64,000 nucleotides of DNA, taken from assembly GCF_054482595.1 (NCBI RefSeq), contig NZ_CM137008.1; one strand, written 5' to 3'. Every line of letters begins with the position of its first letter. The stretch's first letter is position 1. A program made the position numbers and the translations under genes. Of this stretch, positions 2,420 through 49,309 are shown in pieces. Under the pieces are notes generated by a model. The model was not told the origin of the DNA and searched no databases. It saw only the letters and a list, made by a program, of their open reading frames with translations.

Positions 2420-3700
2420 ATGAAATTACTTATTCTGGGCAACCACACTTGCGGCAACCGCGGCGACAGCGCCATCCTGCGCGGCTTACTTGATGCCATC
2501 AACATCCTCAATCCACACGCCGAAGTGGACGTGATGAGCCGCTATCCGGTCAGTTCTTCCTGGCTGCTCAACCGCCCGGTAATGGGCGATCCGCTGTTCC
2601 TGCAAATGAAACAACACAATAGCGCGGCGGGCGTTGTCGGGCGCGTTAAAAAAGTCCTCCGTCGCCGCTATCAACACCAGGTACTGCTCTCACGCGTCAC
2701 CGACACTGGCAAGCTGCGCAATATCGCCATCGCCCAGGGATTCACCGACTTCGTGCGCCTGCTGTCAGGTTACGACGCCATTATTCAGGTCGGCGGATCG
2801 TTTTTTGTCGATCTCTATGGCGTGCCGCAGTTTGAACATGCACTTTGCACGTTTATGGCGAAAAAGCTGCTGTTTATGATTGGTCACAGCGTCGGTCCCT
2901 TCCAGGATGAGCAATTTAACCAACTGGCGAACTATGTCTTTGGTCATTGCGACGCGCTGATCCTGCGCGAATCGGTCAGCCTCGATCTAATGAAACGCAG
3001 CAATATCACTACCGCAAAAGTGGAACATGGCGTTGATACCGCGTGGCTGGTCGATCACCACACCGAAGATTTCACCGCCAGCTATGCCGTCCAACACTGG
3101 CTGGACGTTGCCGCACAACAGAAAACGGTGGCAATTACCCTGCGCGAACTGGCACCGTTCGACAAACGTCTCGGCACCACTCAACAAGCGTATGAAAAAG
3201 CCTTTGCCGGGGTGGTCAATCGCATTCTCGATGAAGGGTATCAGGTGATTGCGCTCTCCACCTGTACGGGCATCGACAGCTATAACAAAGACGACCGCAT
3301 GGTGGCGCTCAATCTGCGCCAGCACATCAGCGATCCTGCCCGTTACCACGTAGTGATGGATGAATTCAACGATCTGGAAATGGGCAAAATTCTCGGTGCC
3401 TGTGAACTCACCGTCGGTACGCGCCTGCACTCTGCCATTATCTCGATGAATTTTGCCACTCCGGCAATTGCCATCAACTACGAACATAAATCCGCCGGGA
3501 TTATGCAGCAGCTGGGACTACCGGAGATGGCAATTGATATCCGTCATTTATTAGACGGCAGCCTGCAAGCGATGGTTGCGGATACCTTAGGCCAGCTTCC
3601 GGTGCTGAACGCTCGACTTAACGAAGCCGTCAGTCGCGAACGTCAGACGGGAATGCAGATGGTGCAATCTGTGCTTGAACGCATCGGGGAGGTGAAATGA
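2420..3700 (+). CDS. wcaK: Colanic acid biosynthesis pyruvyl transferase
   Basis: ORF 2339..3700; start reassigned to the internal ATG at 2420 (MKLLILGNHTCGNRGDSAIL), giving 426 aa; position in cluster. Confidence 0.85.
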   Translation: MKLLILGNHTCGNRGDSAILRGLLDAINILNPHAEVDVMSRYPVSSSWLLNRPVMGDPLFLQMKQHNSAAGVVGRVKKVLRRRYQHQVLLSRVTDTGKLRNIAIAQGFTDFVRLLSGYDAIIQVGGSFFVDLYGVPQFEHALCTFMAKKLLFMIGHSVGPFQDEQFNQLANYVFGHCDALILRESVSLDLMKRSNITTAKVEHGVDTAWLVDHHTEDFTASYAVQHWLDVAAQQKTVAITLRELAPFDKRLGTTQQAYEKAFAGVVNRILDEGYQVIALSTCTGIDSYNKDDRMVALNLRQHISDPARYHVVMDEFNDLEMGKILGACELTVGTRLHSAIISMNFATPAIAINYEHKSAGIMQQLGLPEMAIDIRHLLDGSLQAMVADTLGQLPVLNARLNEAVSRERQTGMQMVQSVLERIGEVK

Positions 3701-4917
3701 AGGTCGGCTTCTTTTTACTGAAATTTCCGCTGTCTTCGGAAACCTTCGTCCTCAATCAAATTACCGCGTTTATTGATATGGGCTTTGAGGTGGAGATTGT
3801 CGCGCTGCAAAAAGGCGACACCCAGAACACCCACGCGGCATGGACGAAATACAACCTTGCCGCAAGAACCCGTTGGTTACAGGACGAACCTACGGGCAAA
3901 GTGGCGAAGCTACGCCACCGTGCCAGCCAGACGTTACGAGGCATTCATCGTAAAAATACCTGGCAGGCGCTCAACCTCAAACGCTATGGCGCAGAGTCGC
4001 GGAATCTGATTTTGTCTGCCATTTGCGGCCAGGTCGCAACACCGTTTCGCGCCGATGTGTTCATCGCTCATTTTGGTCCAGCGGGGGTAACCGCAGCAAA
4101 ACTCCGCGAACTGGGTGTCATTCGCGGCAAAATTGCCACCATTTTCCACGGCATTGATATTTCCAGTCGGGAAGTGCTCAACCACTACACTCCCGAATAT
4201 CAGCAACTGTTTCGCCGTGGCGACCTGATGTTACCGATAAGCGATCTGTGGGCCGGAAGGCTGCAAAAAATGGGCTGCCCGAGGGAAAAAATCGCCGTAT
4301 CGCGCATGGGCGTAGATATGACGCGCTTTAGCCCGCGTCCCGTGAAAGCGCCCGCAACGCCGCTGGAGATTATTTCCGTCGCACGCTTAACCGAGAAAAA
4401 AGGCCTGCATGTGGCGATCGAAGCCTGCCGTCAGTTGAAAGAGCAGGGCGTGGCATTTCGCTATCGCATCCTCGGCATTGGCCCGTGGGAAAGACGCCTG
4501 CGTACCCTCATCGAACAATATCAACTCGAAGATGTGGTGGAGATGCCGGGCTTTAAACCGAGCCACGAAGTGAAAGCGATGCTCGACGACGCGGATGTTT
4601 TCTTGTTGCCATCGGTAACGGGTGCGGATGGCGATATGGAAGGTATTCCGGTGGCGCTAATGGAAGCGATGGCGGTCGGTATTCCGGTGGTTTCTACTCT
4701 GCATAGCGGAATACCGGAACTGGTGGAGGCCGATAAATCCGGCTGGCTGGTGCCTGAGAACGATGCTCGCGCACTGGCGCAACGACTGGCGGCGTTTAGC
4801 CAACTGGACACCGACGAATTGGCTCCGGTCGTCAAACGCGCGCGCGAAAAAGTCGAACACGATTTTAACCAGCAGGTGATTAACCGAGAACTCGCCAGCT
4901 TGCTGCAGGCTTTATAG
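3697..4917 (+). CDS. wcaL: Colanic acid glycosyltransferase (GT4 family)
   Basis: 406-aa ORF whose start overlaps the wcaK stop; GT-B-type C-terminal motif region ([20 protein letters not shown]); position in cluster. Confidence 0.85.
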
Positions 4918-4927
4918 AGGAGAACGT

Positions 4928-6322
4928 ATGCCATTTAAAAAACTCTCCCGACGCACCTTCCTGACGGCAAGCTCGGCGCTTGCCTTCCTCCATACCCCTT
5001 TCGCTCGCGCACTTCCTGCTCGACCAAGCGTTAATATCAACGATTACAATCCGCACGACTGGATCGCCTCATTTAAACAAGCTTTTAGTGAAGGGCAAAC
5101 GGTCGTCGTGCCTGCCGGATTGGTTTGTGACAATATCAACACCGGCATCTTCATTCCTGCAGGTAAAACGTTACACATCCTTGGAAGCCTGCGCGGCAAC
5201 GGCAAAGGGCGATTTGTTTTACAGGACGGCAGCCAGGTGACAGGGGAGGAGGGCGGCAGTATGCATAACATCACCCTGGATGTGCGCGGCTCTGACTGCA
5301 CCATCAAAGGGCTGGCGATGAGCGGCTTTGGCCCGGTAACGCAGATTTATATCGGCGGCAAAAACAAACGGGTCATGCGCAACCTGACCATCGATAACCT
5401 CACTGTCAGCCACGCTAATTACGCCATCTTACGCCAGGGATTTCATAACCAGATTATCGGTGCCAACATCACCAATTGTAAGTTCAGCGACTTACAGGGG
5501 GACGCTATTGAATGGAACGTGGCGATTAACGACAGTGATATTTTGATCTCCGACCATGTCATCGAGCGCATCAACTGTACTAACGACAAAATCAACTGGG
5601 GCATCGGCATAGGTCTTTCGGGTAGTACCTACGATAACAACTACCCGGAAGACCAGGCAGTGAAAAACTTTGTCGTGGCGAATATCACGGGATCGGATTG
5701 TCGGCAGTTGATCCATGTTGAAAATGGTAAACATTTTGTTATTCGTAATATCAAAGCCCGCAATATCACACCGGATTTCAGTAAGAAAGCAGGTATTGAT
5801 AACGCGACAGTCGCTATTTACGGTTGTGACAATTTCGTGATTGATAATATTGAAATGATTAATAGCGCCGGGATGTTAATCGGTTATGGGGTAATTAAAG
5901 GCAAATATCTCTCGATACCGCAAAATTTCCGAGTGAATAATATTCAACTGGATAATACCCACCTTGCTTACAAATTGCGCGGTATCCAAATCTCCGCCGG
6001 GAATGCTTTCTCCTTTGTGGCGCTGACTAACATTGAGATGAAGCGTGCCTCGCTGGAGCTTCACAATAAACCGCAACATCTTTTTATGCGAAATATCAAT
6101 GTGATGCAGGAATCCTCAGTTGGACCCGCATTGAGCATGAACTTCGACATGCGCAAAGACGTTCGCGGCGTCTTTATGGCGAAAAAAGAAACGCTGCTTT
6201 CACTCACGAATATTCATGCCGTGAATGAAAAAGGGCAAAGCACCGTCGATATCGACAGGATAAATCACCATATTGTTAATGTGGAAAAGATTAACTTTAA
6301 ATTGCCGGAACGGAGGGAGTAG
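4928..6322 (+). CDS. wcaM: Colanic acid biosynthesis protein WcaM (signal peptide, beta-helix-like)
   Basis: 464 aa with an N-terminal twin-arginine-like leader ([13 protein letters not shown]); last gene of the colanic-acid cluster by position. Confidence 0.8.
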
Positions 6323-6479
6323 ATTTGCGACCATTCATAAACTTACTGGATATAATGTTCTAAAAGATTATAATCCTTACGCTAACTGTTAAAGCTGGGG
6401 CTGGGCAGCATTGACTACTCAGGGAAGATACTCATCTTTATCTTGTGTTTCTTACGTAACAACCAGACTAAAGTGATTT

Positions 6480-7475
6480 ATGAACGATAACGTTTTGCTC
6501 ATAGGAGCTTCCGGATTCGTAGGAACCCGACTACTTGAAACGGCAATTGCTGACTTTAATATCAAGAACCTGGACAAACAGCAGAGCCACTTTTATCCAG
6601 AAATCACGCAGATTGGTGATGTTCGTGATCAACAGGCACTCGACCAGGCGTTAGCCGGTTTTGACACTGTTGTACTACTGGCAGCGGAACACCGCGATGA
6701 CGTCAGCCCTACTTCTCTCTATTATGATGTCAACGTTCAGGGTACCCGCAATGTGCTGGCGGCCATGGAAAAAAATGGCGTTAAAAATATCATCTTTACC
6801 AGTTCCGTTGCTGTTTATGGTTTGAACAAACACAACCCTGACGAAAACCATCCACACGATCCTTTCAACCACTACGGCAAAAGTAAGTGGCAGGCAGAGG
6901 AAGTGCTGCGTGAATGGTATAACAAAGCACCAACAGAACGTTCATTAACCATCATCCGTCCTACCGTTATCTTCGGTGAACGGAACCGCGGTAACGTCTA
7001 TAACTTGCTGAAACAGATCGCTGGCGGCAAGTTTATGATGGTGGGCGCAGGGACTAACTATAAGTCCATGGCTTATGTTGGAAACATTGTTGAGTTTATC
7101 AAGTACAAACTGAAGAATGTTGCCGCAGGTTATGAGGTTTATAACTACGTTGATAAGCCAGACCTGAACATGAACCAGTTGGTTGCTGAAGTTGAACAAA
7201 GCCTGAACAAAAAGATCCCTTCTATGCACTTGCCTTACCCACTAGGAATGCTGGGTGGATATTGTTTTGATATCCTGAGCAAAATTACGGGCAAAAAATA
7301 CGCTGTCAGCTCAGTGCGCGTGAAAAAATTCTGCGCAACAACACAGTTTGACGCAACGAAAGTGCATTCTTCAGGTTTTGTGGCACCGTATACGCTGTCG
7401 CAAGGTCTGGATCGAACTCTGCAGTATGAATTCGTTCATGCCAAAAAAGACGACATAACGTTTGTTTCTGAGTAA
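6480..7475 (+). CDS. gne: NAD-dependent epimerase, UDP-GlcNAc/GalNAc 4-epimerase-like (Gne family)
   Basis: 331 aa with an N-terminal Rossmann motif (LLIGASGFVGTRL) and a YxxxK active-site motif (YGKSK); lies between wcaM and galF, where gne is found in several E. coli serogroups. Confidence 0.65.
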   Translation: MNDNVLLIGASGFVGTRLLETAIADFNIKNLDKQQSHFYPEITQIGDVRDQQALDQALAGFDTVVLLAAEHRDDVSPTSLYYDVNVQGTRNVLAAMEKNGVKNIIFTSSVAVYGLNKHNPDENHPHDPFNHYGKSKWQAEEVLREWYNKAPTERSLTIIRPTVIFGERNRGNVYNLLKQIAGGKFMMVGAGTNYKSMAYVGNIVEFIKYKLKNVAAGYEVYNYVDKPDLNMNQLVAEVEQSLNKKIPSMHLPYPLGMLGGYCFDILSKITGKKYAVSSVRVKKFCATTQFDATKVHSSGFVAPYTLSQGLDRTLQYEFVHAKKDDITFVSE

Positions 7476-7717
7476 TGCAGACGAGTCAGAGAAAAAAGGA
7501 CCAGGTTGGACTACGATTATTCGGAAAGAGGTACTGATTAAATTATCAGTATGCGGAATTCCGAGTAATCCGAGTAACCCAGATGCTGATGGTGTGTAGT
7601 GTTATCCTAAGGTTTAAGCAAAGTTTTGCGGAACTAAGCTTTGGTATATAGCCATAACGTTTGGCTAACCTATGGCAATAATTTACGCACTATCAGCCAC
7701 TTAGAGGTAGGAAAAGA

Positions 7718-8611
7718 ATGACGAATTTAAAAGCAGTTATACCGGTAGCAGGTCTTGGGATGCATATGTTGCCTGCCACTAAGGCGATTCCCAAAGAGAT
7801 GCTACCGATCGTCGACAAGCCAATGATTCAGTACATTGTTGACGAGATTGTGGCTGCAGGGATCAAAGAAATCCTCCTGGTGACTCACGCGTCCAAGAAC
7901 GCGGTCGAAAACCACTTCGACACCTCTTATGAATTAGAATCTCTCCTTGAACAGCGCGTGAAGCGTCAACTGTTGGCGGAAGTGCAGTCTATCTGTCCGC
8001 CTGGCGTGACCATTATGAACGTGCGTCAGGGCGAACCTTTAGGTTTAGGCCACTCCATTTTATGTGCACGACCCGCCATTGGCGACAACCCATTTGTCGT
8101 GGTACTGCCAGACGTAGTGATCGACGACGCCAGCGCTGACCCGCTGCGCTACAACCTTGCTGCCATGATTGCGCGCTTCAATGAAACGGGCCGTAGCCAG
8201 GTGCTGGCAAAACGTATGCCGGGTGACCTCTCTGAATACTCTGTCATCCAGACCAAAGAACCGCTTGATCGTGAAGGTAAAGTCAGCCGCATTGTTGAAT
8301 TTATCGAAAAACCGGATCAGCCGCAGACGCTGGACTCAGACATCATGGCTGTTGGTCGCTATGTGCTTTCTGCCGATATTTGGCCGGAACTAGAACGTAC
8401 TCAGCCTGGTGCATGGGGACGTATTCAGCTGACTGATGCAATTGCTGAGCTGGCGAAAAAACAGTCCGTTGATGCCATGCTGATGACCGGCGACAGTTAC
8501 GACTGCGGTAAAAAAATGGGTTATATGCAGGCGTTTGTGAAGTATGGGCTTAGGAATTTAAAGGAAGGTGATAAGTTCAGGATGAGTGTAAAAAAATTGT
8601 TAGAAATCTAA
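7718..8611 (+). CDS. galF: UTP-glucose-1-phosphate uridylyltransferase paralog GalF
   Basis: 297 aa with a nucleotidyltransferase N-terminus ([35 protein letters not shown]); immediately precedes the O-antigen cluster. Confidence 0.9.
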
Positions 8612-8842
8612 CTCCGAACTATTAACGCGTTCCTTGGGCGATAGGGGACTTAATACGATTGTAATGGTTAATCGTGTTTCCCCTTTTTTAGATTGATTGG
8701 TAGTTGGAATGGAAATTTTATATTGAGCAAAATATGGGGAAAATATATTTTAGTTAGTTATTAAGAGTACAATCTGTTGAATACTTGTTTCGCTAAATAA
8801 TTGAGTTTTAGGTTTTTATTAAAATTTATAACTATTAATGAG

Positions 8843-8883
8843 CATAGTGCACTGGTAGCTATAGAGCCAGGGGCGGTAGCTTG
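8843..8883 (+). promoter_or_regulatory. JUMPstart element with ops (GGCGGTAG) antitermination site upstream of the O-antigen operon
   Basis: cactggtagctatagagccaggggcggtagcttg; ops core ggcggtag at 8872-8879, about 80 bp upstream of wzx; RfaH-dependent operons carry this element. Confidence 0.65.
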
Positions 8884-8960
8884 TTTAGTGTTAGGTATTC
8901 TGGTTTTAAAAGCATAAAACTCTCCAGTATTTTCATTGCATACATAATATTATTCATTAA

Positions 8961-10208
8961 ATGTCATTAAAAAAAAATGTTATATATCTAGTGTTGATGC
9001 AAGCGGTTAATTATATTGCTCCTCTTGTTTTAGTACCATATTTAACGCGAATCCTTGGAGTGGAAAAATATGGCGTTCTAGGTCTTGCTATTACGGTTAG
9101 CCAGTACTTAATTTTGTTGACGGATTTTGGTTTTAATTTTACTGCCAGTAGAAAAATAGCTCAATTTAAAGATAGTAAAGTCAGGGTTAGTCAAATATTT
9201 TGGACTATCATCTCAGCAAAATTTTTAATGATGATAGTATCATTCGGTTTAATTGTCCCTTTTGTTGTGTTTTCAGAAAAATTAAATCCCTTAAAATGGG
9301 AAATATTTTTAGTTTCGCTATCTGTAGTTGCGAGTGTGATTATTCCATCTTGGTTGTTTCAGGGGCTTGAAAAGGTTACAGTTTTTTCCGGCATCAATAT
9401 TTTTTCTAAGATTTTGATTGTGCCTCTTGTCTTTATTTTTGTGAAATCTAAGGAGGATTTACTGATTGCCTGCTTATTACAAGGTGGAGTGCAAGTATTT
9501 TCTGGAATAATATCCATATTGTATGTTAAGTATAATAAGATTATTTCATTTAAAGTTGTGAGGCCAAAATTAATCTTTATATATTTAAAAGAGTCTCTAT
9601 CAGTATTTTTAGGTAATTTATCTATTTCTTTATATACTCTCAGTACGCCCTTAGTTTTAGCTCTTATGGGGACAACGTATCAAGTTGGGCTTTATAGTGC
9701 CACTGATAGAATCAGAGGGGCTGCAATTGGTATCTTTATAGTTGTTGGATATGCAATTTTCCCCAGAGTAAGCTATTTGTTTAAAAAAAATCCCTTAGAA
9801 GCTAATGTTTTGCTTAAAAAAATAATATTTATCTTCTCGATTCTGGGATGTTTAGGTGGAGTACTTGTATATAGTATTGCTGATGAGATTGTTTTAGTTG
9901 CATTTGGTAATCAATATTTAGATTCTGCCATTCTTTTGAAAATAATGGCGCCTATGTTTTTACTCATTCCTCTTTCAATAATTATGGCAAACTACTTATT
10001 ATTGCCAAATGGTTTTAAAAAAGAGTATGCAAAAAATTCTGTGATAGTATGCTTATTGCATATGACATATGTTTTCCCTCTTTGTAAATACTATGGTGCA
10101 GTTGGCGGTAGTTATTCGATTCTTATTTCAGAGATAATAAGCTTTATTTTATTAATTTTTTGGACGATAAAAAATAATTTATTGAAGAAGGTTTTTTATG
10201 CAAGATAA
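8961..10208 (+). CDS. wzx: O-antigen flippase
   Basis: 415-aa highly hydrophobic polytopic protein; AT-rich codon usage typical of O-antigen clusters; first gene after JUMPstart. Confidence 0.7.
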   Translation: MSLKKNVIYLVLMQAVNYIAPLVLVPYLTRILGVEKYGVLGLAITVSQYLILLTDFGFNFTASRKIAQFKDSKVRVSQIFWTIISAKFLMMIVSFGLIVPFVVFSEKLNPLKWEIFLVSLSVVASVIIPSWLFQGLEKVTVFSGINIFSKILIVPLVFIFVKSKEDLLIACLLQGGVQVFSGIISILYVKYNKIISFKVVRPKLIFIYLKESLSVFLGNLSISLYTLSTPLVLALMGTTYQVGLYSATDRIRGAAIGIFIVVGYAIFPRVSYLFKKNPLEANVLLKKIIFIFSILGCLGGVLVYSIADEIVLVAFGNQYLDSAILLKIMAPMFLLIPLSIIMANYLLLPNGFKKEYAKNSVIVCLLHMTYVFPLCKYYGAVGGSYSILISEIISFILLIFWTIKNNLLKKVFYAR

Positions 10209-41496: not shown

Positions 41497-42315
41497 TCAG
41501 CGCAGGCTCTCCAGCATCGTTTCTGCCATCACCCACAATGCGCGATTGAGCTTAATGTCGGTATCAATGCTGTGAATGGCCCGGGTATGGATACGTTTTC
41601 CTTTTGCACTGCGACCGGAAATCCCGCCTTTCAGCATATTCTCCTGGATGGTCTGATATGCGCTCCACAGGTCCTTACCGTAATCCTCCCGGCGTCGCGG
41701 CGTCAGAATGTCGGCGGTGGTGACGGGCTGATGTTCGTCACCATAACGGTAAGTCAGTGCCGCCTGTGCCAGCGCCTGGCGTGCCGGTGGCGGCAGGACC
41801 AGCGACTGCATGGCATCACGCTTCTCCTCTATCCGGTCAAACACGCCCACCACCTCGTAAGCCCCTTCGATAACTTTCTCCACTACATTTCCCCGGTGTG
41901 GAACACGCACTTCCCCCAGAGACTGGCCACAGACGCACCCGTTCTGGCAGACGAACCTGAAGTAACCCGGCAGCATCTGGTAGCTGGAGGTACCGTCATG
42001 AGAGTTGAGCAGAATAATTTCAGGGACATGTTCTCCGTTTATCTCTCCGGCCCGCCGCAGACGCAGCATGTGTTTTGTGTATCCCCGGCGGCCCGGGTCG
42101 CGCACACGGGTCTGGCAGGCGAAGAACGGCTGAAAGCCTTCCCGCTGCAGATTTTCCAGGACGGTAATGGTGGGAATGTACGCATACCGTTCACTGCGGG
42201 AGGTATGCCGGTCTTCCCCAAAAATACTGGGTACATAGTGCATCAGTTCTTCGTGTGTCAGCGGACGGTCACGGCGTATCTGGTTTACATGACCAAAACG
42301 ACTTGCTAATCGCAT
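41497..42315 (-). CDS. DUF932-family protein (YafZ/YfjQ-like island backbone protein)
   Basis: 272 aa; position and composition match the DUF932 gene of CP4-6/CP4-57-type islands; assigned from memory of the family. Confidence 0.55.
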   Translation of the reverse strand: MRLASRFGHVNQIRRDRPLTHEELMHYVPSIFGEDRHTSRSERYAYIPTITVLENLQREGFQPFFACQTRVRDPGRRGYTKHMLRLRRAGEINGEHVPEIILLNSHDGTSSYQMLPGYFRFVCQNGCVCGQSLGEVRVPHRGNVVEKVIEGAYEVVGVFDRIEEKRDAMQSLVLPPPARQALAQAALTYRYGDEHQPVTTADILTPRRREDYGKDLWSAYQTIQENMLKGGISGRSAKGKRIHTRAIHSIDTDIKLNRALWVMAETMLESLR

Positions 42316-42349: not shown

Positions 42350-42381
42350 TGAAAAAGCTGCGTCTCCCGGAGAAGACGCGG
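42350..42381 (-). terminator. Rho-independent terminator downstream of the cargo operon
   Basis: Minus strand gcgtcttctccgggagacgc followed by agcttttt; separates the cargo genes from the DUF932 backbone gene. Confidence 0.45.
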
Positions 42382-42525: not shown

Positions 42526-42936
42526 TTAGATTTTAAGTTTGTCCTGGGCTACAACGACAGGTTTTCCGGATGTGTCGATGACTCCTACCGTCGGTACGCC
42601 ATTTTTGATTTCGAAGAACGGTTTGTTGCTACCTGAGCACAGTTGATTGTCCCCGTATTCAATCATTTGTGCTTTCCCGGTTTTCAGGTTAACTACCGAG
42701 ACAGTGTAGTCGTAGCACCAGGCACCACCACGTTCAAGCACGAAAACATAGCTGTTATCTTTATAGTTGAACTGATTCTTTGTCTGGCAATTCATACCGT
42801 CAATCTCAGTACAGGAAAACGCTTCTGTAGTATTAACGTATTTGATGTTATTTGGCAGTTTTACTTGTTTCGCAGTAGCGAAGACAGAGAACAGAATAGT
42901 TACAGCAACGAGTAAAGTTTTGATAAAAGTTTTCAT
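42526..42936 (-). CDS. Small exported protein with signal peptide, unknown function
   Basis: 136 aa; N-terminal signal peptide (MKTFIKTLLVAVTILFSVFATA), 5 Cys, AT-rich codon usage unlike the flanking genes. Confidence 0.5.
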   Translation of the reverse strand: MKTFIKTLLVAVTILFSVFATAKQVKLPNNIKYVNTTEAFSCTEIDGMNCQTKNQFNYKDNSYVFVLERGGAWCYDYTVSVVNLKTGKAQMIEYGDNQLCSGSNKPFFEIKNGVPTVGVIDTSGKPVVVAQDKLKI

Positions 42937-42951
42937 GATAGACTCCTTAAA

Positions 42952-43440
42952 TTAGTTAACCGCAGCTACGTAGTTTTTCACCAGATACGCGAATTCATGC
43001 ACGCCAATTTCACCGAACCAAACCAGGTAGGCCGGGTCATCTAAACCAAAGTAACGGTAGCCAACAACTTCATGGGTTTTTGGGTTATAGAGTGTTACGA
43101 TAAAGTCCCAGCCGCAGGTATTGGCTTTGCAACCGTCGCCCTGGAGCCAGACTGTACCGTTAATGTTTACTGGCGTGATACCTCCACCAGGGCCATCCAT
43201 ATAGCCGCCTTTACCGAACATGCCGCTCAGTCCGACCGGTTTTAATGCTTTGTCGATAGCGGCTTTGTAGGTAGCGTCACCTTCGTACAACTCGTACGTT
43301 GATGGACACGCTCCAGGTTGTTCAGCCCAGGCTTCCGGGTTACAACTAAGTGCTTGTTTTACGGTAGCCGCTTCTGCGTTAAAGTTAAAGCCCGTGAACA
43401 GAACCGCCAGAAATAACATAAGGGTATGTAAACGTTTCAT
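42952..43440 (-). CDS. Exported protein, possible Ivy-family (inhibitor of vertebrate lysozyme-like) protein
   Basis: Start set at MKRLHTLMLFLAVLFTGFNFNAEA (signal peptide). Motif GCKANTCGWDFIVTLY resembles the Ivy CKPHDCG loop but lacks the His. The same frame stays open upstream to 43743 with a second signal-like segment from 43635. Confidence 0.4.
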   Translation of the reverse strand: MKRLHTLMLFLAVLFTGFNFNAEAATVKQALSCNPEAWAEQPGACPSTYELYEGDATYKAAIDKALKPVGLSGMFGKGGYMDGPGGGITPVNINGTVWLQGDGCKANTCGWDFIVTLYNPKTHEVVGYRYFGLDDPAYLVWFGEIGVHEFAYLVKNYVAAVN

Positions 43441-43770
43441 TGTAAATATTCTTCCGTTGTAAATGGCGCTGGAAAATTTCTCATCAGTGAAACCTTCCGG
43501 AAGTTTCCCCCCCTTGTATGATGTATATCGCCAGTATTTTATTTCATCCCGGCTGTAATTTTTATATTCCCCGGCACGTGCAATAACGCTGACCAGAGAT
43601 ATAAGGCTCATTAATAACTTTACAGGTAATTTCATAATTAAATTTCCAGTGAGTGAATTGACAGGTGAGGGGTAAAACTTTCTCTCAGGTAATATATATC
43701 TGAAAATATTTTCAATAACACCAGACAGGAAAAACACCACCACAGGCGGTGGCGTTTCTTTGGGGCGTCT

Positions 43771-44841
43771 TTATTTAATCCGGGCCATCGCGTTTCTCAG
43801 TGCCAAATCTGCCTCTTCCGTTATATCCAGGCTTTTCTGCAATACCGCCTCTGACCGGGTCAGTGCCTGACGTGCTGCCAGCGGTTTCCGGATATGCTCC
43901 ATCGCCAGCATCGTGTCTTCATAGCCCTGCTGACGCCAGGCGTCGGTATGTGCCGATGTAAAACTGAGCAGACCGCCGCTGTTGCCACCATCACCTGCAT
44001 ATTTCAGCCTTTTCCGGGGACGGATCTCAAGGATTGTGGTGTCCGGAAAAGCCTGGCGATCCCATAAAGAACCGTCACTCAGATGCGTCACAATCACCAT
44101 ATTGCATCCGGCATCGACCAGAGGCGTCACAGGGGTATTTCCCTGCATATTTCGCCATCCTCCCATACCACCATCACCGAACATTGTCCCCTGAACCTCA
44201 CGGGGACGGAACAGCAGGGGCAGCGCGGCTGACGCAAGCAGAGCCTCTTTCTGCTGTCCGCGGGGCAGGCTCTGGATATGCTGAAAAACGGCGTTTTTCG
44301 TGGTTCCGACACCCAGTTCAGCACGAATGCAGTCAATAATATCCTGCATGCCCCCTTCTGTGGGGTACAGCGACACATACAGCGGTAGCCCGTCTGCCAG
44401 AGCATCAGTATCAAGATAATGATCCATCAGCGCTGTCAGGGGCTCATCTGACAACAACGGCTGAGCCATCAGATTGTCAAACCCGTTGATTGTCGATATA
44501 TGGCGAAGAAGCGTCGTAAGCAGTGCTCCTGCACGTCCGGGGATCTGGCAGAGGTTCATTGCCTGGAACAATTTTTTCAGCAATGAAAAGTAAACCAATC
44601 TGTTTACCGACAGCACCTGATTATTCCCCAGATGATCCCAGAGCGCCTCCAGGCGTACGGCAGCTTCTGACAGATCGGGAGAGGCCGCGATAATGGCACC
44701 ATTGAATGCGCCAATGCTGGCCCCTGAAACCATGCTGATCTGTGTACCACACTCTGCCAGTGCCTTAACCACTCCCGCCTGATAAGCGCCCACCGCCCCG
44801 CCACCGGACAGCACCAGCCCCGTTTTCATTTCTGTACTCAT
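43771..44841 (-). CDS. Patatin-like phospholipase
   Basis: 356 aa; Gly-rich oxyanion loop LVLSGGGAVGAYQAG, nucleophile elbow VSGASIGAF (GxSxG), catalytic Asp in FGDGGM (DGG); no signal peptide; start ATG overlaps the upstream stop (ATGA). Confidence 0.8.
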   Translation of the reverse strand: MSTEMKTGLVLSGGGAVGAYQAGVVKALAECGTQISMVSGASIGAFNGAIIAASPDLSEAAVRLEALWDHLGNNQVLSVNRLVYFSLLKKLFQAMNLCQIPGRAGALLTTLLRHISTINGFDNLMAQPLLSDEPLTALMDHYLDTDALADGLPLYVSLYPTEGGMQDIIDCIRAELGVGTTKNAVFQHIQSLPRGQQKEALLASAALPLLFRPREVQGTMFGDGGMGGWRNMQGNTPVTPLVDAGCNMVIVTHLSDGSLWDRQAFPDTTILEIRPRKRLKYAGDGGNSGGLLSFTSAHTDAWRQQGYEDTMLAMEHIRKPLAARQALTRSEAVLQKSLDITEEADLALRNAMARIK

Positions 44842-45743
44842 GCAGCCCCCTTCTGAAATATTTCATCGACCATACTTTCAGAGAGGCGTTCTGCAGAGCA
44901 GAGGCGAGGCATGCGAACCGGTAAGTGTTCTGCAGCCTGCGTGGTTGACCAGATCACCGGATGCTGCTCTTCACTGCACCAGTCTCCCAGCCAGTTAATC
45001 GCGTCATGCCACTCGTTATCTGCCTGCTCCCGGCCCTGACCACCAAGCCAGTCCAGAGTGTTCAGACGCACGGTTGCACTACCGCCACTCTCCTGTGCCA
45101 TCTGCGTTAATGCTTTATGTCTGAGAATATCCAGTAGCTGGTTAACCTGGCCTGTTTCGCCCTGACGTATCACATCACCAAACGCGCCCCAGCGAAGCTC
45201 TTCAAGTGCCACATAACAACGTCCGGCAGGGGAAAATGACGCATATCGCCCGGCGCTCCACCATGAGAATATCTGCTCAAGATGTAACTGCGCCCGCTGA
45301 ACCTGGTCAACACGGTGGAGTTTTTCTTCAAGATGATTCAGTTTATGGTGAACCTGATCGGCCAGGGTGAGTAACTGCTCCCGCGTATCTGCGGAATAAT
45401 GCGCCAGCCTGGCTGTATCACTGACCAGTGAACTGACCCTGTCGTTTACCCGGGTAATCGCGTAGTTTGTGGTGGCAAGTGACGTTGTCATCTCCGTCAG
45501 CCAGCGCAGGGACGCCTCAACGCCCTGTGCAAGCGACGCATTGATGGCATTCTGCCGTGCAGCGCCTTCGCCGGTCAGCCCCTCTTTTAAACGCCGGAAG
45601 AACGTGCGCTCTCCGGCCGTGCGGATATGCTCCTGTGCAACATCGATTCCGTTTGCGAAATCAACCACAAATTTTTCAGGAAGACAGGTGAGTACCTGAC
45701 ATACCCGGTTATCAGCAATTTGTTGAATAAATGGTGAAGTCAC
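44838..45743 (-). CDS. Helical/coiled-coil protein of unknown function, translationally coupled partner of the dynamin-like GTPase
   Basis: 301 aa, no nucleotide-binding motif; ATGA overlaps at both ends (45740-45743 and 44838-44841). Confidence 0.6.
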   Translation of the reverse strand: MTSPFIQQIADNRVCQVLTCLPEKFVVDFANGIDVAQEHIRTAGERTFFRRLKEGLTGEGAARQNAINASLAQGVEASLRWLTEMTTSLATTNYAITRVNDRVSSLVSDTARLAHYSADTREQLLTLADQVHHKLNHLEEKLHRVDQVQRAQLHLEQIFSWWSAGRYASFSPAGRCYVALEELRWGAFGDVIRQGETGQVNQLLDILRHKALTQMAQESGGSATVRLNTLDWLGGQGREQADNEWHDAINWLGDWCSEEQHPVIWSTTQAAEHLPVRMPRLCSAERLSESMVDEIFQKGAA

Positions 45744-48136
45744 AGCATTGTCTCCAGCTCTTCCCTCAGCGCCTTACTGTCAGTAATGAGCTCAGGAACC
45801 CTTTCATTTAATGCCTGAAGTCGCCCGGTAAGTCGTTCCTGCGCCTGCTGATCGCGTTTATGATCCTCAGAGCTCTGAATCAGCGTGTTACGCAGTTGTT
45901 CAACTTTCTCCCTGAATGCGCAGAAAAAGGCATCGATTTCCTGGCGGACGGGCTGGTTAATATCCTGCTCAATGGATGCCTGCAGCTCCCCGAAATATGC
46001 CCGGGTCAGTGACATAACTTCCTCTCTGACCTTGTTGATATTGATCACGCTGCGACTCACATCCTCGTCATAGTTTTCCCAGCCCAGGTCACTGGTGCCA
46101 AACCATCGACAAACGGTTCCCCATACGCCACTCTGCCGACGGCGACGGGTGACGGTCTCCGTTCTTTCCTCCATAAGCGCACTCAGATTTATTTTTACCG
46201 CGAGCCGGGTCTGTAACTGGCTGACTGCCGGAAAACTGATTTTTACGGTAAAGCCCTCATCCTCCAGGCGGGCATTGATGCGACCGGCAATGTTTTCTGT
46301 GGCGTACAGGGCCGTGCCACGAAAACCTGTTTCAATCCCGCTGACGATTTTCTCCAGCTCAGGCCGGAACTGTGCTTCAGCCTCACGGTGCAGGCTGGTC
46401 ACGGTCGATTCGATTTGCGTCATCAGTTCAAGGGCTTCCCTGCGATCACTGAATTTTATTTCGGGGCTGTCCGGGGCAAAATCTCGTTTCCTGTAATCCT
46501 CCCGGCCCTGGTTGTTGATACCGGACCATTGAGAAATTTTCCCCCATAATCCGGACTGAGACCTTCGTTGTTCTGCGTCTTCTTCCTCCAGCATTTGCTG
46601 TTCTTTGCGTTTACCGCTTCTGAAATAGTCATTCAGCTCCTCTTCCAGTGAGGTGCAGACCCCCGTCAGTAATTCCCGGGTTTTAGTATCGATCTCCTCC
46701 ATGGCCATTCTGACATCAGTGGTCATCTGCTCCTGACAGTCCGCGATTTCCCGGATATCCGCAAGCAGGCTGGTGATATGCGACTGCAGTGACTGAATGC
46801 TTTGCTGTAGCCCCTGATGGCGTAACAACAGGTATTCACTGATATTTTCTGCATTCTGCATCAGTTTTGCGGCGGCAGAGTCAACCGCCAGTGCCGCAGC
46901 TCTGGAATGTGAGCTCTGTATGACTTCCGTTATCAGTTGATCGATAAGTGAGCCTTCCCACAGGTCTGTCGCCCCTTCAGTTGCCAGTTCACTGTCTTTA
47001 CAGACGTATTCTTTTTTCATGCAACCGAAGGCACCTCTGATAAAATCATCGACCCAGGCTTCATCAACAGGAAGGGTTCCGTTTTTCCGTAACTCATGAA
47101 GCGCACGGTTAGCCAGGTATGCCTGGCGTGAGGATCCGGGATAAACGCGGGAGGCGGGCAGCACATCGCTGTTCAGCATTGCCGGAACTTTCTGGCGTAC
47201 GGCATCTGCCCCATCGCCATTGCGGTCTTTCTCATCAAATTTATTGACCAGTACAAACAGGCGGCCGGCTGATACGTCAGCAATGGCATTAAGCTCTTTA
47301 CGGACGTCTTCATCCGCTTTTGAGTTCATCTGGGTGTAATCCATCACAGCCAGAACCGCAGAGGCTTTCTGCAGTTGATCCCGCATCATCACTTCCATCT
47401 GCGGTTGTCCGGCCTCATTAGGGCCGGGGGTATCCAGCAGTGTGAGTGTTCCCTGGCATGCATCCATCCCCACCAGATGGCTGAATTCCACGTCGATCAC
47501 CGGCAGTTTCTGCACTTCTGCGTATTCATCAAAAGGAAATTCAGTCCCCATTGCCGCAGCAAGACGAACCAGATCGTTTAACGATGCCAGTCCGGTAAAG
47601 ATTTCCTCCTCCCCGTGGTATTCATTTTTGAGCCAGCCATCATCCGTCAGAATATCCAGCAGTTCGCGGGTATCCCCGGTTTGCTGCAGGGTCTGTGCGA
47701 CCTGCTGTCCTGCCGGGGTGGCGAGTTTTTCCTGCAGTGTGATTAATAAATTGCGGACAGGCTGAATATGTTCCAGATGGAGAACCGGCTCAGTTTTTCC
47801 GGGAACGTGGCGGATGAGCGTCGGTACAGAGGTCATGGGGCGGTTACGGTTAGGCAGAATTTCCTGCCCCACAATGGCATTGATGGTGGTTGATTTGCCT
47901 GCTTTCATCGTGCCGACAACAGCCAGCACCATCTCCCTGCGGGCGGTTTTGATTTGTTCGCCCTCCAGCTCCTCAATTCTTTTCAGTGCTTTCTGTTTAT
48001 CAAAAAGCAGTCTGTTTTCGTTCTTACTGTCAGATAACACATCTGGCTCCTCAACCATTTGCCGGAGCAGATTAATGTTCAGTTGCAAAAGTCGGTCGGC
48101 TTCATCACAAAGCAGGGCGATGTTCTTTTCGTGCAT
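45740..48136 (-). CDS. Dynamin-like large GTPase (bacterial dynamin-like protein family)
   Basis: 798 aa; G1 P-loop VVGTMKAGKSTTINAI, G3 LLDTPGPNE, G4 VLVNKFDEK, then about 500 aa of helical/coiled-coil sequence; AGGAAGG Shine-Dalgarno 7 nt upstream of the ATG. Confidence 0.8.
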   Translation of the reverse strand: MHEKNIALLCDEADRLLQLNINLLRQMVEEPDVLSDSKNENRLLFDKQKALKRIEELEGEQIKTARREMVLAVVGTMKAGKSTTINAIVGQEILPNRNRPMTSVPTLIRHVPGKTEPVLHLEHIQPVRNLLITLQEKLATPAGQQVAQTLQQTGDTRELLDILTDDGWLKNEYHGEEEIFTGLASLNDLVRLAAAMGTEFPFDEYAEVQKLPVIDVEFSHLVGMDACQGTLTLLDTPGPNEAGQPQMEVMMRDQLQKASAVLAVMDYTQMNSKADEDVRKELNAIADVSAGRLFVLVNKFDEKDRNGDGADAVRQKVPAMLNSDVLPASRVYPGSSRQAYLANRALHELRKNGTLPVDEAWVDDFIRGAFGCMKKEYVCKDSELATEGATDLWEGSLIDQLITEVIQSSHSRAAALAVDSAAAKLMQNAENISEYLLLRHQGLQQSIQSLQSHITSLLADIREIADCQEQMTTDVRMAMEEIDTKTRELLTGVCTSLEEELNDYFRSGKRKEQQMLEEEDAEQRRSQSGLWGKISQWSGINNQGREDYRKRDFAPDSPEIKFSDRREALELMTQIESTVTSLHREAEAQFRPELEKIVSGIETGFRGTALYATENIAGRINARLEDEGFTVKISFPAVSQLQTRLAVKINLSALMEERTETVTRRRRQSGVWGTVCRWFGTSDLGWENYDEDVSRSVININKVREEVMSLTRAYFGELQASIEQDINQPVRQEIDAFFCAFREKVEQLRNTLIQSSEDHKRDQQAQERLTGRLQALNERVPELITDSKALREELETML

Positions 48137-48193
48137 TATTTAACCTTCCTAAGACGCATTTTCATGACAACCACGGAGGAGGTCATTCACTAC

Positions 48194-48236
48194 AAACGAT
48201 CGTTTATAACGATCGATATGATAGTAACGATCGATG
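48194..48236. promoter_or_regulatory. Cluster of three GATC-containing AACGATCG boxes upstream of the dynamin operon (candidate Dam/OxyR phase-variation switch)
   Basis: aaacgatcgttt-ataacgatcgat-atgatagtaacgatcgatg; GATC at 48198, 48211 and 48229, 60-100 bp upstream of the dynamin start codon, in the slot corresponding to the yeeP-flu intergenic region. Confidence 0.4.
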
Positions 48237-48353
48237 TATTCTATTAACTTGAGAAACACAACGCAAGGGGACAACCCGGGTATGGCTGCGTTTGCATAGT
48301 GTTTTCATGGAGTTAAAAATCTGTAACAACAGCCTGGTACATCACCACCGGGT

Positions 48354-49226
48354 TCAGAAGAAAATCCAGTTCCATACCGCGCGGGCAACAGAGACCACCG
48401 AGTCACGGACGGCGCGCAGAACCGTGCGTGCAACAGAGGCAATGCAGACGCTCTCCGCCGTGTCAAATATCCGGTCCACCGCACCGGTAAACTGTTCACG
48501 GGCCTGAGACCGGACAGACTCCGTGCGCAGCTCGTCCTGCAGGCGGGTCATCAGGGGACTGGCGGCATGGTCGGGAAGTGCTGTCATGAGCGCACTGACC
48601 AGCGTATCCAGTTCCCAGCCGGTGCGGGCCGATACGGCAACAACCCGATGTACGGGCCGGAACAGACGGAATACCGCCTCCGTTTTTTCGCGAATGTTCT
48701 GTGCCTGTGCGGGAGAAGGCTGAATACCGGCCATATCCCATTCATGGCAGGGCTCCGTTTTATCGGCCTGCATCACCACAAACAGTACCCGCTGATGTCC
48801 CCGGTGCAGGATGTGTCGCCAGAAATACTCATCCACAGACAGGGCACGGTCATCGGCTTTAATCAGCCACAGTACCAGGTCCAGTTCGGGCAGAATGTCA
48901 CGGTACAGGGCTTCATACTCTGCATCCCTGTCCCGGCTCTCGCCCACCCCGGGCAGGTCAGTGATAACCATGCTGTGACCATGGCCATTCAGACGGAAGC
49001 GCTGCACTTCCCGGGTGCCGGCGTGAACATCACTGACCGGGGTGACCTCCCCCTGAAACAGCGCATTACAGAGTGAGGATTTACCGGCCCCGCTTTTCCC
49101 CATAATGCCAATCACGGGTTCGTGACTGGTGAGTTTGCGCAGATGTTCCAGGATGTGACGGGAAAGTGAGTAAGGCAGGGAGGAGAGCGGTTTTTCGATT
49201 GCCTCAATGGCATCAGACGGATTCAT
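48354..49226 (-). CDS. yeeP: YeeP/YfjP/YkfA-family small GTPase (island backbone)
   Basis: P-loop GIMGKSGAGKSSLCNAL, G3 ITDLPGVGE, G4 VMQADKTE; start set at MNPSDAIEAIEK (GGGAA Shine-Dalgarno), about 290 aa. Confidence 0.7.
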   Translation of the reverse strand: MNPSDAIEAIEKPLSSLPYSLSRHILEHLRKLTSHEPVIGIMGKSGAGKSSLCNALFQGEVTPVSDVHAGTREVQRFRLNGHGHSMVITDLPGVGESRDRDAEYEALYRDILPELDLVLWLIKADDRALSVDEYFWRHILHRGHQRVLFVVMQADKTEPCHEWDMAGIQPSPAQAQNIREKTEAVFRLFRPVHRVVAVSARTGWELDTLVSALMTALPDHAASPLMTRLQDELRTESVRSQAREQFTGAVDRIFDTAESVCIASVARTVLRAVRDSVVSVARAVWNWIFF

Positions 49227-49309
49227 ACATGTATTCCCGGTGAAAAAAGACAAAACCCCGCGCACCGGAAAGGTGGCGGGGGATTCACGGAAATAATATC
49301 TGTCTGAAA

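Follow-up and report, generated by a model that had tools for sequence, protein, structure and literature searches.

Three adjacent genes on the minus strand of a 64,000-nt stretch of contig NZ_CM137008.1 (NCBI RefSeq assembly GCF_054482595.1), referred to here in its whole length as the window, encode a dynamin-like GTPase (DLP), a partner protein of the RdcB/YjcZ family and a patatin-like phospholipase (PLP). We found that these three genes recur together in distant bacteria, and we conclude that DLP-YjcZ-PLP forms one co-functional module, a conclusion that is much better supported than the defence mechanism considered below. The architecture is a variant assembled from known parts; it is neither a categorically new kind of element nor one that had gone entirely unnoticed. 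In the open reading frame (ORF) listing, DLP (798 aa, ATG start) occupies positions 45740-48136 of the minus strand, the YjcZ-like gene (301 aa, GTG start) 44838-45743 and PLP (356 aa, ATG start) 43771-44841, just as described in an earlier note on this DNA that was made from its letters alone. The earlier note had placed ATGA overlaps at both junctions. This is correct for the YjcZ/PLP junction, which reads GCATGAGT and contains a true ATGA overlap at 44838-44841, but not for the DLP/YjcZ junction (...CTGTGACTT), where the TGA stop codon shares 4 nt with the GTG start and the overlap is GTGA (45740-45743). The whole unit measures 4.4 kb and is absent from K-12.

Co-occurrence of the homologs as an operon elsewhere had been named beforehand as the point on which the reading of these genes as a unit could fail, and it was strongly borne out. 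We scanned one genome per species (100,044 species) with a patatin profile, fetched the best 80 of the 436 loci with relatives of PLP, and located DLP and YjcZ genes in them by tblastn and iterated hidden Markov model searches. The YjcZ gene lies directly upstream of the patatin gene in 68 of the 80 loci, and DLP lies upstream of that in 64. Loci without a YjcZ or DLP gene are mostly contig ends. True exceptions, with upstream DNA present and neither gene in it, are nine Synergistaceae loci that carry a shorter patatin amid metabolic genes, a Brasilonema locus (L059) in which the patatin gene is broken, and a Neomegalonema locus (L064). The DLP/YjcZ junction is overlapping or abutting in 36 of 59 loci, the YjcZ/PLP junction in 52 of 68, with a gap of at most 30 nt in all of the latter. 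Pairwise distance matrices of DLP, YjcZ and PLP are closely correlated (r = 0.87-0.91, Mantel test, P-value <= 0.001), and the three proteins have therefore been inherited together. Since the genes recur, with their order kept, in dozens of distant genomes, the arrangement goes beyond chance. A YjcZ-profile search gave 438 matches; every one of the best 120 is a protein of the operon-linked type, ~300 aa long and with a single domain. The rdcAB genes of K-12 are the sole DLP-YjcZ pair without an effector gene among the examples examined.

The operon was found in Enterobacterales, Pseudomonas, Acinetobacter, Moraxella, Betaproteobacteria, purple sulfur bacteria and methanotrophs, and further in several cyanobacteria, Desulfocapsa, Victivallales and a Neomarinimicrobiota metagenome-assembled genome (MAG). 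The carriers also include bacteria that live freely in the environment, for instance Gallionella, Allochromatium, Scytonema and Methylococcales. Within E. coli the three-gene unit is no rarity: at least 80% of its length is covered in 2,442 of 5,426 complete genomes (~45%), in up to five places per genome, and the carriers include the type strain (ATCC 11775), APEC O1 and O157:H7. A variant of 62.5% identity is carried by plasmids from Klebsiella, Enterobacter and E. coli, with 44 records, conjugative or mobilizable ones among them. No match to the operon was found by tblastn in the 50,697 phage records of INPHARED. The YjcZ profile found nothing in IMG/VR, and the patatin profile found there one close partial match and seven distant patatins, so that the operon is essentially absent from that collection as well.

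Gene content departs from the basic three in a few loci. The Methylomonas koyamae locus L092 has an extra 99-aa ORF (9617-9916) between the DLP and YjcZ genes. In three other loci a protein is encoded directly downstream of the patatin gene at a median gap of ~61 nt, in ORFs of 218-287 aa (L008, 10452-11315; L058, 11381-12061; L067, 11109-11765). It bears an RNQLMHG motif that resembles the HEPN Rx4-6H motif and has no match in PADLOC or NCBIfam; some lineages may thereby possess a fourth, accessory gene.

The domain assignments proposed for DLP and PLP from their motifs are upheld by profile searches. DLP matches Pfam Dynamin_N over residues 71-299 (E-value 1.6e-17), and its translation contains GTMKAGKST (G1), DTPG (G3) and NKFD (G4). 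Among 50 sequences, residues G75, K78, G80, K81, S82, T83, T102, D235, T236, G238, N298 and D301 are invariant, and the G1 loop, switch-1 (PNRNRPMT), G3 (DTPGPNE) and G4 (NKFD) are invariant or at least 90% conserved. An AlphaFold2 (AF2) model built on 50 orthologs (predicted local distance difference test score, pLDDT, 80.3) places the G domain at residues ~68-350, followed by a long helical stalk with helices at 413-527, 565-626 and 700-797; the fold is dynamin/mitofusin-like. With a G-motif domain that matches Dynamin_N and a helical stalk downstream of it, DLP belongs to the dynamin superfamily. Two elements set operon-linked DLPs apart from K-12 RdcA, in which they are degenerate or absent. 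One is a basic, Trp-rich motif (RRRRQSGVWGxxCxWF..DWGWExY, residues 664-690 of the window DLP), modelled by AF2 as a beta-hairpin and a short helix (residues 656-699); the other is an insert of ~55 aa (residues 510-565) with a short hydrophobic Gly-rich segment. RdcA is reported to be soluble, and we consider the hairpin and the insert together a candidate membrane paddle. Two-headed variants of DLP also occur: a Synergistaceae MAG (L054, 1290-6356) encodes a fused double DLP of ~1,690 aa upstream of YjcZ-patatin, and Acinetobacter chengduensis (L033) has tandem DLP genes (4930-6525 and 6559-9042). Both are reminiscent of B. subtilis DynA.

The 301-aa protein is a member of the YjcZ family (Pfam PF13990, E-value 3.2e-70, residues 26-296 aligned to positions 1-272 of the 272-position model). 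Its AF2 model is all-helical (pLDDT 78.8, predicted template modelling score 0.74), and a sequence search of the PDB gave no relative of solved structure.

PLP matches Pfam Patatin (PF01734) with an E-value of 7.4e-24. The motifs SGGGAVG, GASIG and DGG are read from its translation, and the corresponding residues G13-G14-G15, G40-A-S42-I-G44 and D223-G-G225 do not vary among 15 diverse homologs of 46-66% identity, which places PLP among the patatins. No signal peptide was found in PLP and no linkage to a secretion system is visible, and we predict that the protein is cytoplasmic. Its nearest solved structures are PlpD, followed by VipD (4kyi, 4akf) and ExoU; the likeness to all three is confined to the N-terminal oxyanion-loop region, which for ExoU and VipD means the first 50-60 residues. 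A C-terminal helical tail of ~35 residues (~322-356) is kept in operon-linked homologs and missing in the stand-alone Synergistaceae relatives. Since these relatives, whose loci have no YjcZ or DLP gene, lack the tail, it is a candidate docking element. Patatin genes in E. coli are frequently altered. Truncated alleles of 203-262 aa account for many large protein clusters (P0017, P0019, P0023, P0026, P0041 and P0062), some of them misnamed 'ferredoxin reductase', and RdcB-patatin or dynamin-patatin fusion ORFs of 95-100% identity are found in clusters P0004, P0056, P0081, P0028, P0054 and P0071. These alleles suggest recurrent inactivation or deletion inside the operon, some of them being contig-end partials.

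A likeness of the large GTPase and its partner to the CrfC(YjdA)/YjcZ pair, now RdcA/RdcB, had been pointed out in the earlier note, and it proved to be full-length paralogy. DLP matches the NCBIfam CrfC/RdcA model NF007368 from end to end (E-value 1.2e-166, residues 1-797 to model positions 1-736 of 742) and is 33% identical to K-12 RdcA over residues 57-798 (BLASTP), while the YjcZ-like protein is 30% identical to K-12 RdcB (BLASTP, E-value 2e-38). The score of DLP, 556.2 bits, lies under the 1146-bit cut-off of NF007368; we therefore rejected DLP as an RdcA/CrfC equivalog and regard it as a paralog. The two pairs share both protein families in full length, the gene order, a 4-nt overlap (K-12 locus L088: rdcA 3136-5364, rdcB 5361-6239, in the context yjdM-rdcAB-proP) and the invariant G motifs including the switch-1 threonine, Thr102 of DLP corresponding to the catalytic Thr103 of RdcA. 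They differ in that RdcAB is a core gene pair next to proP, belongs to the flagellar regulon and acts on an unlinked enzyme, whereas the module is island cargo with a coupled patatin; moreover, identity is only 30-33%, and DLP has the extra ~55-aa insert and an intact Trp-rich hairpin.

RdcA forms dimers, interacts with RdcB and docks on the MASE1 domain of DgcE, which leads to DgcE activation in a manner dependent on GTP hydrolysis (Pfiffer et al., PMC6510439). RdcA was reported to be soluble, and its T103D variant, which binds GTP and hydrolyses it very poorly, was inactive, while K82A was active (PMC6510439). These two phenotypes suggest that GTP-bound RdcA is the off state. In neighbour-joining trees of concatenated DLP and YjcZ sequences, which are distance-based, cover patatin-anchored loci only and show RdcAB as a long branch, K-12 RdcA/RdcB nests inside the patatin-linked clade as sister to the Budvicia and Serratia oryzae operons (bootstrap 96% for the concatenation, 99% for DLP alone) and in no case falls with the cyanobacterial or other deep branches. 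Because of this nesting, we suggest that core rdcAB derives from the three-gene module, having lost the phospholipase and gained DgcE as a target.

We compared the flanks of the operon between loci. When all flanking ORFs were clustered, only three families of WYL-domain regulators proved to recur strongly (PADLOC WYL models, E-values 1e-18 to 1e-25). Of 43 testable loci, 13 have a WYL regulator at most 2.5 kb upstream, and type I restriction-modification (R-M) genes are present in four loci. WYL and BrxR regulators are typical of defence islands. In Pseudomonas fluorescens the operon is preceded by genes for SIR2, an AAA ATPase, an ankyrin protein, BrxR and an ADP-ribosylglycohydrolase, and followed by those for a YeeP-like GTPase, an integrase, RadC and DUF932. 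In Vibrio vulnificus a WYL protein is encoded directly upstream and BrxL/PglZ 3 kb downstream, within an element with a relaxase and a resolvase. The Pectobacterium operon ends a CP4-like island bearing CbtA/CbeA, the Plesiomonas one is accompanied by an integrase and an excisionase-type helix-turn-helix protein, and another Pseudomonas lineage has a divergent WYL-WCX regulator and integrases. Together, the WYL/BrxR, bacteriophage exclusion (BREX), R-M, SIR2 and integrase neighbourhoods support a defence role without proving it. In P. aeruginosa (L089-L091) the operon lies immediately downstream of recC-recB-recD and is followed by a gene for a 253-aa protein, one for a WYL-WCX regulator, several large genes without annotation and one for a BrxR-type regulator; the site looks like a chromosomal defence hotspot.

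In line with the earlier note, which did not recognise the combination as a named system, the module is distinct from Eleos and from the anti-phage signalling system based on cyclic oligonucleotides (CBASS), model scores in PADLOC and NCBIfam falling below membership of either. Eleos was rejected: the PADLOC LeoBC model matches DLP over residues 29-89, the P-loop region, only (E-value 8.6e-5, with no stretch reaching significance), and LeoA gave no match. The two share a bacterial dynamin-superfamily GTPase, whose GTPase motifs are expected to be essential, and an island location beside defence genes. However, Eleos consists of two dynamin-like proteins and no phospholipase, while the present module combines a single DLP with a helical partner that is no GTPase and with a patatin. 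CBASS was rejected as well, since no CD-NTase is encoded in the operon or its flanks and PLP scores 18.3 bits against a cut-off of 200 with the CapV-type lipase model NF041079; PADLOC phospholipase effector models reach an E-value of 1e-4 at best, with no significant stretch. By analogy with CBASS-CapV, the presumptive suicide effector would be a latent cytoplasmic patatin activated by a sensor from the same operon, but the activator in CBASS is a small molecule, and here it would be a protein GTPase complex. The likeness to VipD-Rab5 is one of concept, GTPase binding opening the catalytic site of a patatin; VipD, unlike PLP, is a secreted effector activated by a small GTPase of the host. The bacterial dynamins DynA of B. 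subtilis, BDLP of Nostoc and SynDLP of Synechocystis, which remodel membranes, work singly or in pairs of DLPs, and none among them is known to be coupled to a YjcZ partner or a phospholipase.

Overall, we propose as the most probable reading that DLP-YjcZ-PLP is a GTPase-gated phospholipase switch, carried on mobile islands and plasmids, which provides an abortive-infection type of defence for both host and island. We give this reading an even chance of being right. Gating is proposed because the paralogous RdcA/RdcB docks on and activates a separate enzyme according to nucleotide state. Patatins are usually latent and depend on cofactors, as VipD does on Rab5, ExoU on ubiquitin and CapV on cGAMP. 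For the module we infer complex formation, a direction of regulation, a trigger, a lethal outcome and a role in defence, as follows. DLP and the YjcZ-like protein would form a cytoplasmic complex that holds or releases the patatin according to its GTP state; engagement of the membrane through the basic, Trp-rich hairpin of DLP might also be needed. An attack by a phage or another mobile genetic element (MGE) that disturbs the GTP pool or the inner membrane would be the trigger, upon which the patatin would hydrolyse inner-membrane phospholipids and cause growth arrest or death. A wider version of the proposal, which we put forward tentatively and would sooner doubt than believe, is that the module represents a widespread immune system, in which a dynamin GTPase complex reads the GTP pool or the integrity of the inner membrane in the course of infection and licenses a patatin to destroy the membrane, and of which RdcA/RdcB is a domesticated, effector-less descendant.

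Several observations weigh against this defence switch. The Methylomonas operon lies between ECF-sigma, FecR and TonB genes, an iron-uptake context, and an accessory region of an IncF plasmid holds one copy of the operon in non-defence surroundings. The copies in E. coli lack a WYL regulator, and the evidence from defence neighbourhoods is partly anecdotal, BREX, type I R-M, SIR2 and BrxR neighbours being seen in individual loci. For the direction of GTP control, we extrapolate from a paralog of 33% identity with a different target. A prevalence of ~45% in E. coli, with up to five copies per genome, is high for a costly suicide system. PADLOC 2.0, run on the five cargo proteins and YeeP, gave no system-level match and has no model for the module. 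Finally, full-text literature searches returned no experimental study or phenotype of the operon and only two genome or transcriptome papers of 2026.

Both of those papers bear on how new the module is. In E. coli MP1 lysogenic for Kapi1, expression of dynamin / RdcB-family / phospholipase operons rose strongly; the authors called the operon a putative defence system, as a speculation, and stated that they knew of no link between dynamin and phospholipase (PMC12922286). A genome paper on Shiga toxin-producing E. coli lists the operon genes in an island (PMC13182975). Given the first of these reports and the fact that RefSeq names all three products, the module cannot be called undescribed, as it had been in the earlier note.

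Of the alternatives to the defence switch, a non-immune membrane-remodelling or repair unit survives best, and we think it unlikely. DLP would here tether, fuse or tubulate the inner membrane at sites of damage, in the manner of DynA, or form vesicles, as proposed for LeoABC; the patatin would supply lysophospholipids or remove damaged lipids, with YjcZ as an assembly factor. The dynamin/mitofusin-like fold and the candidate paddle of DLP fit such a unit, and membrane surveillance and vesicle formation are known roles of bacterial DLPs (PMC12922286, PMC12998192). The non-defence contexts in Methylomonas and on the IncF plasmid are also in its favour, and the high prevalence in E. coli would suit a mildly beneficial, housekeeping-like accessory function. 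However, the distribution of the operon is patchy, suggestive of horizontal gene transfer and tied to mobile elements; its neighbours include recurrent WYL/BrxR regulators as well as BREX, R-M and SIR2 genes; and RdcA, the characterised paralog nearest to DLP, does not remodel membranes but is a soluble regulator.

The association with mobile elements could also be read as selfishness or competition among them. The patatin would then be a toxin restrained by DLP and YjcZ, with phages not its main target; it would either stabilise its island or plasmid through addiction or be turned as a weapon on incoming plasmids or integrative and conjugative elements. We find this quite unlikely, even though the operon sits in CP4-like islands beside the cbtA/cbeA toxin-antitoxin pair and on conjugative or mobilizable plasmids, is missing from the phage records and essentially from IMG/VR, and has frequent truncated patatin alleles in E. 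coli that suggest a costly effector. An addiction module would not typically consist of three large proteins with a GTPase motor, and the WYL/BrxR and BREX/R-M surroundings resemble anti-phage islands. In practice, this alternative overlaps with the defence switch, as the mechanism is shared and the target differs.

The RefSeq product name 'diguanylate cyclase regulator RdcB family' implies a third alternative, namely signalling of the RdcAB kind, in which DLP/YjcZ would dock on a MASE1-type or other membrane sensor enzyme and tune cyclic di-GMP levels and biofilm behaviour, the patatin being auxiliary or separate. DLP and the YjcZ-like protein are indeed full-length paralogs of activators of DgcE, and E. 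coli strains with the island also have core rdcAB and dgcE, as is established for K-12, in which we saw rdcAB. Yet almost every lineage has the patatin translationally coupled to the pair, with which it also co-diverges; cyanobacteria, Desulfocapsa, Victivallales and others, where a DgcE partner would not be expected, have the operon too; the NF007368 score is far under the equivalog cut-off; and the nesting of RdcAB in the patatin-linked clade suggests that the form without an effector is the derived one. Hence, we regard signalling as very unlikely. Delivery of the patatin into eukaryotic cells as an ExoU/VipD-like virulence factor is extremely improbable: the solved patatins nearest to PLP include ExoU and VipD, and the islands occur in pathogenic E. 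coli including O157:H7, but the likeness to ExoU and VipD stops after the first 50-60 residues, neither a secretion signal nor linkage to a secretion system is visible, and the operon is common in free-living environmental bacteria.

In the window, the module sits in the slot predicted by the earlier note, the Ag43 cargo slot of a CP4-44-like island. With 99.8% identity, the region matches one in E. coli ATCC 11775 that occupies the CP4-44 site between yeeA/tmaR and cobU, and RefSeq annotation of ATCC 11775 and of K-12 CP4-44 agrees with this placement. The K-12 counterpart reads yeeP'-isrC-flu-yeeR-yeeS and has isrC-flu-yeeR in the slot, a swappable cargo space that holds flu in K-12. One border of the block is formed by a gene for a YeeP-like GTPase (48354-49265), the other by a DUF932 gene (41497-42315). 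The YeeP-like GTPase, a small GTPase of the island backbone, matches the PADLOC LeoBC model with an E-value of 8.6e-9, better than DLP does, and YeeP-like GTPases recur near the operon in Pseudomonas (L082, 11915-12889) and Pectobacterium (L086, 423-1298) islands.

The intergenic region upstream of DLP (48137-48353, minus strand) contains a Shine-Dalgarno sequence, AGGAAGG, before the ATG, as well as a candidate promoter and repeats, all of them recognised by consensus. The sigma-70-like match TTAATA-18-TATCAT (48247..48218, minus strand) is the sole one upstream of DLP. It is overlapped by three copies of the repeat (T/A)AACGATCG(A/T)T (48194-48235, minus strand, spaced by 13 and 18 nt), and these AACGATCG-type repeats look like a candidate operator for some regulator. 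A terminator-like hairpin with a T-run (43751..43735, minus strand) follows immediately after the patatin stop codon and probably marks the 3' end of the conserved three-gene unit, with read-through possible. The earlier note had missed this hairpin; the terminator that it placed at about 42350-42381 corresponds to a second terminator-like hairpin (42379..42360, minus strand), which closes the cargo block just before the DUF932 backbone gene.

Between the two hairpins lie the genes of two small predicted secreted proteins, S1 (42952-43635, minus strand, 227 aa in RefSeq; the mechanical ORF reaches 43743) and S2 (42526-42936, minus strand, 136 aa). Their N-termini are hydrophobic and signal-peptide-like, as judged from sequence. 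The earlier note had listed two signal-peptide proteins behind the phospholipase, and they are there, but they do not form part of the conserved unit. We found no match of S1 in Pfam, NCBIfam or PADLOC, no family match of S2, and no homologs of either by tblastn in the 80 non-E. coli loci (L002-L081), E. albertii included. Local GC is ~0.45 at S1 versus ~0.53 for the three-gene unit. Of 5426 E. coli genomes, 1880 carry the S1/S2 block. Due to the lack of homologs outside E. coli and of family matches, the lower GC and the terminator-like hairpin before them, membership of S1 and S2 in the conserved operon was rejected; on this evidence they are E. coli-specific add-ons to the module. S1 has two signal-peptide-like segments in frame, MKLPVKLLMSLISLVSVIARA at the start and MKRLHTLMLFLAVLFTGFNFNAEA ~65 residues in, and it may be two fused small secreted proteins or use an internal start. 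Five co-induced genes are reported (PMC12922286), although S1 and S2 fall outside the conserved core, and because of this joint up-regulation termination at 43735-43751 may be partial.

What appears to be new here is the conservation of the operon across phyla, its association with WYL regulators and the exclusion of S1/S2 from its core, as well as the candidate paddle and tail elements and the nesting of RdcAB in the patatin-linked clade. If the module is a GTPase-gated phospholipase, it would represent a new sensor-to-effector wiring in immunity or stress suicide, with a dynamin-like sensor driving a patatin, and a bacterial parallel to the activation logic of Rab5-VipD. Its scale would be considerable, as it is present in ~45% of complete E. 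coli genomes, on Klebsiella and Enterobacter plasmids, and in Pseudomonas, Vibrio, Acinetobacter, methanotrophs and cyanobacteria. The current view of RdcA/RdcB is that of a biofilm regulator idiosyncratic to E. coli, whose role in replication is disputed. As a derived branch of an ancient mobile module, the pair would suggest that a defence-type switch was recruited into second-messenger signalling, and this reframing may offer a handle on the signal sensed by RdcA.

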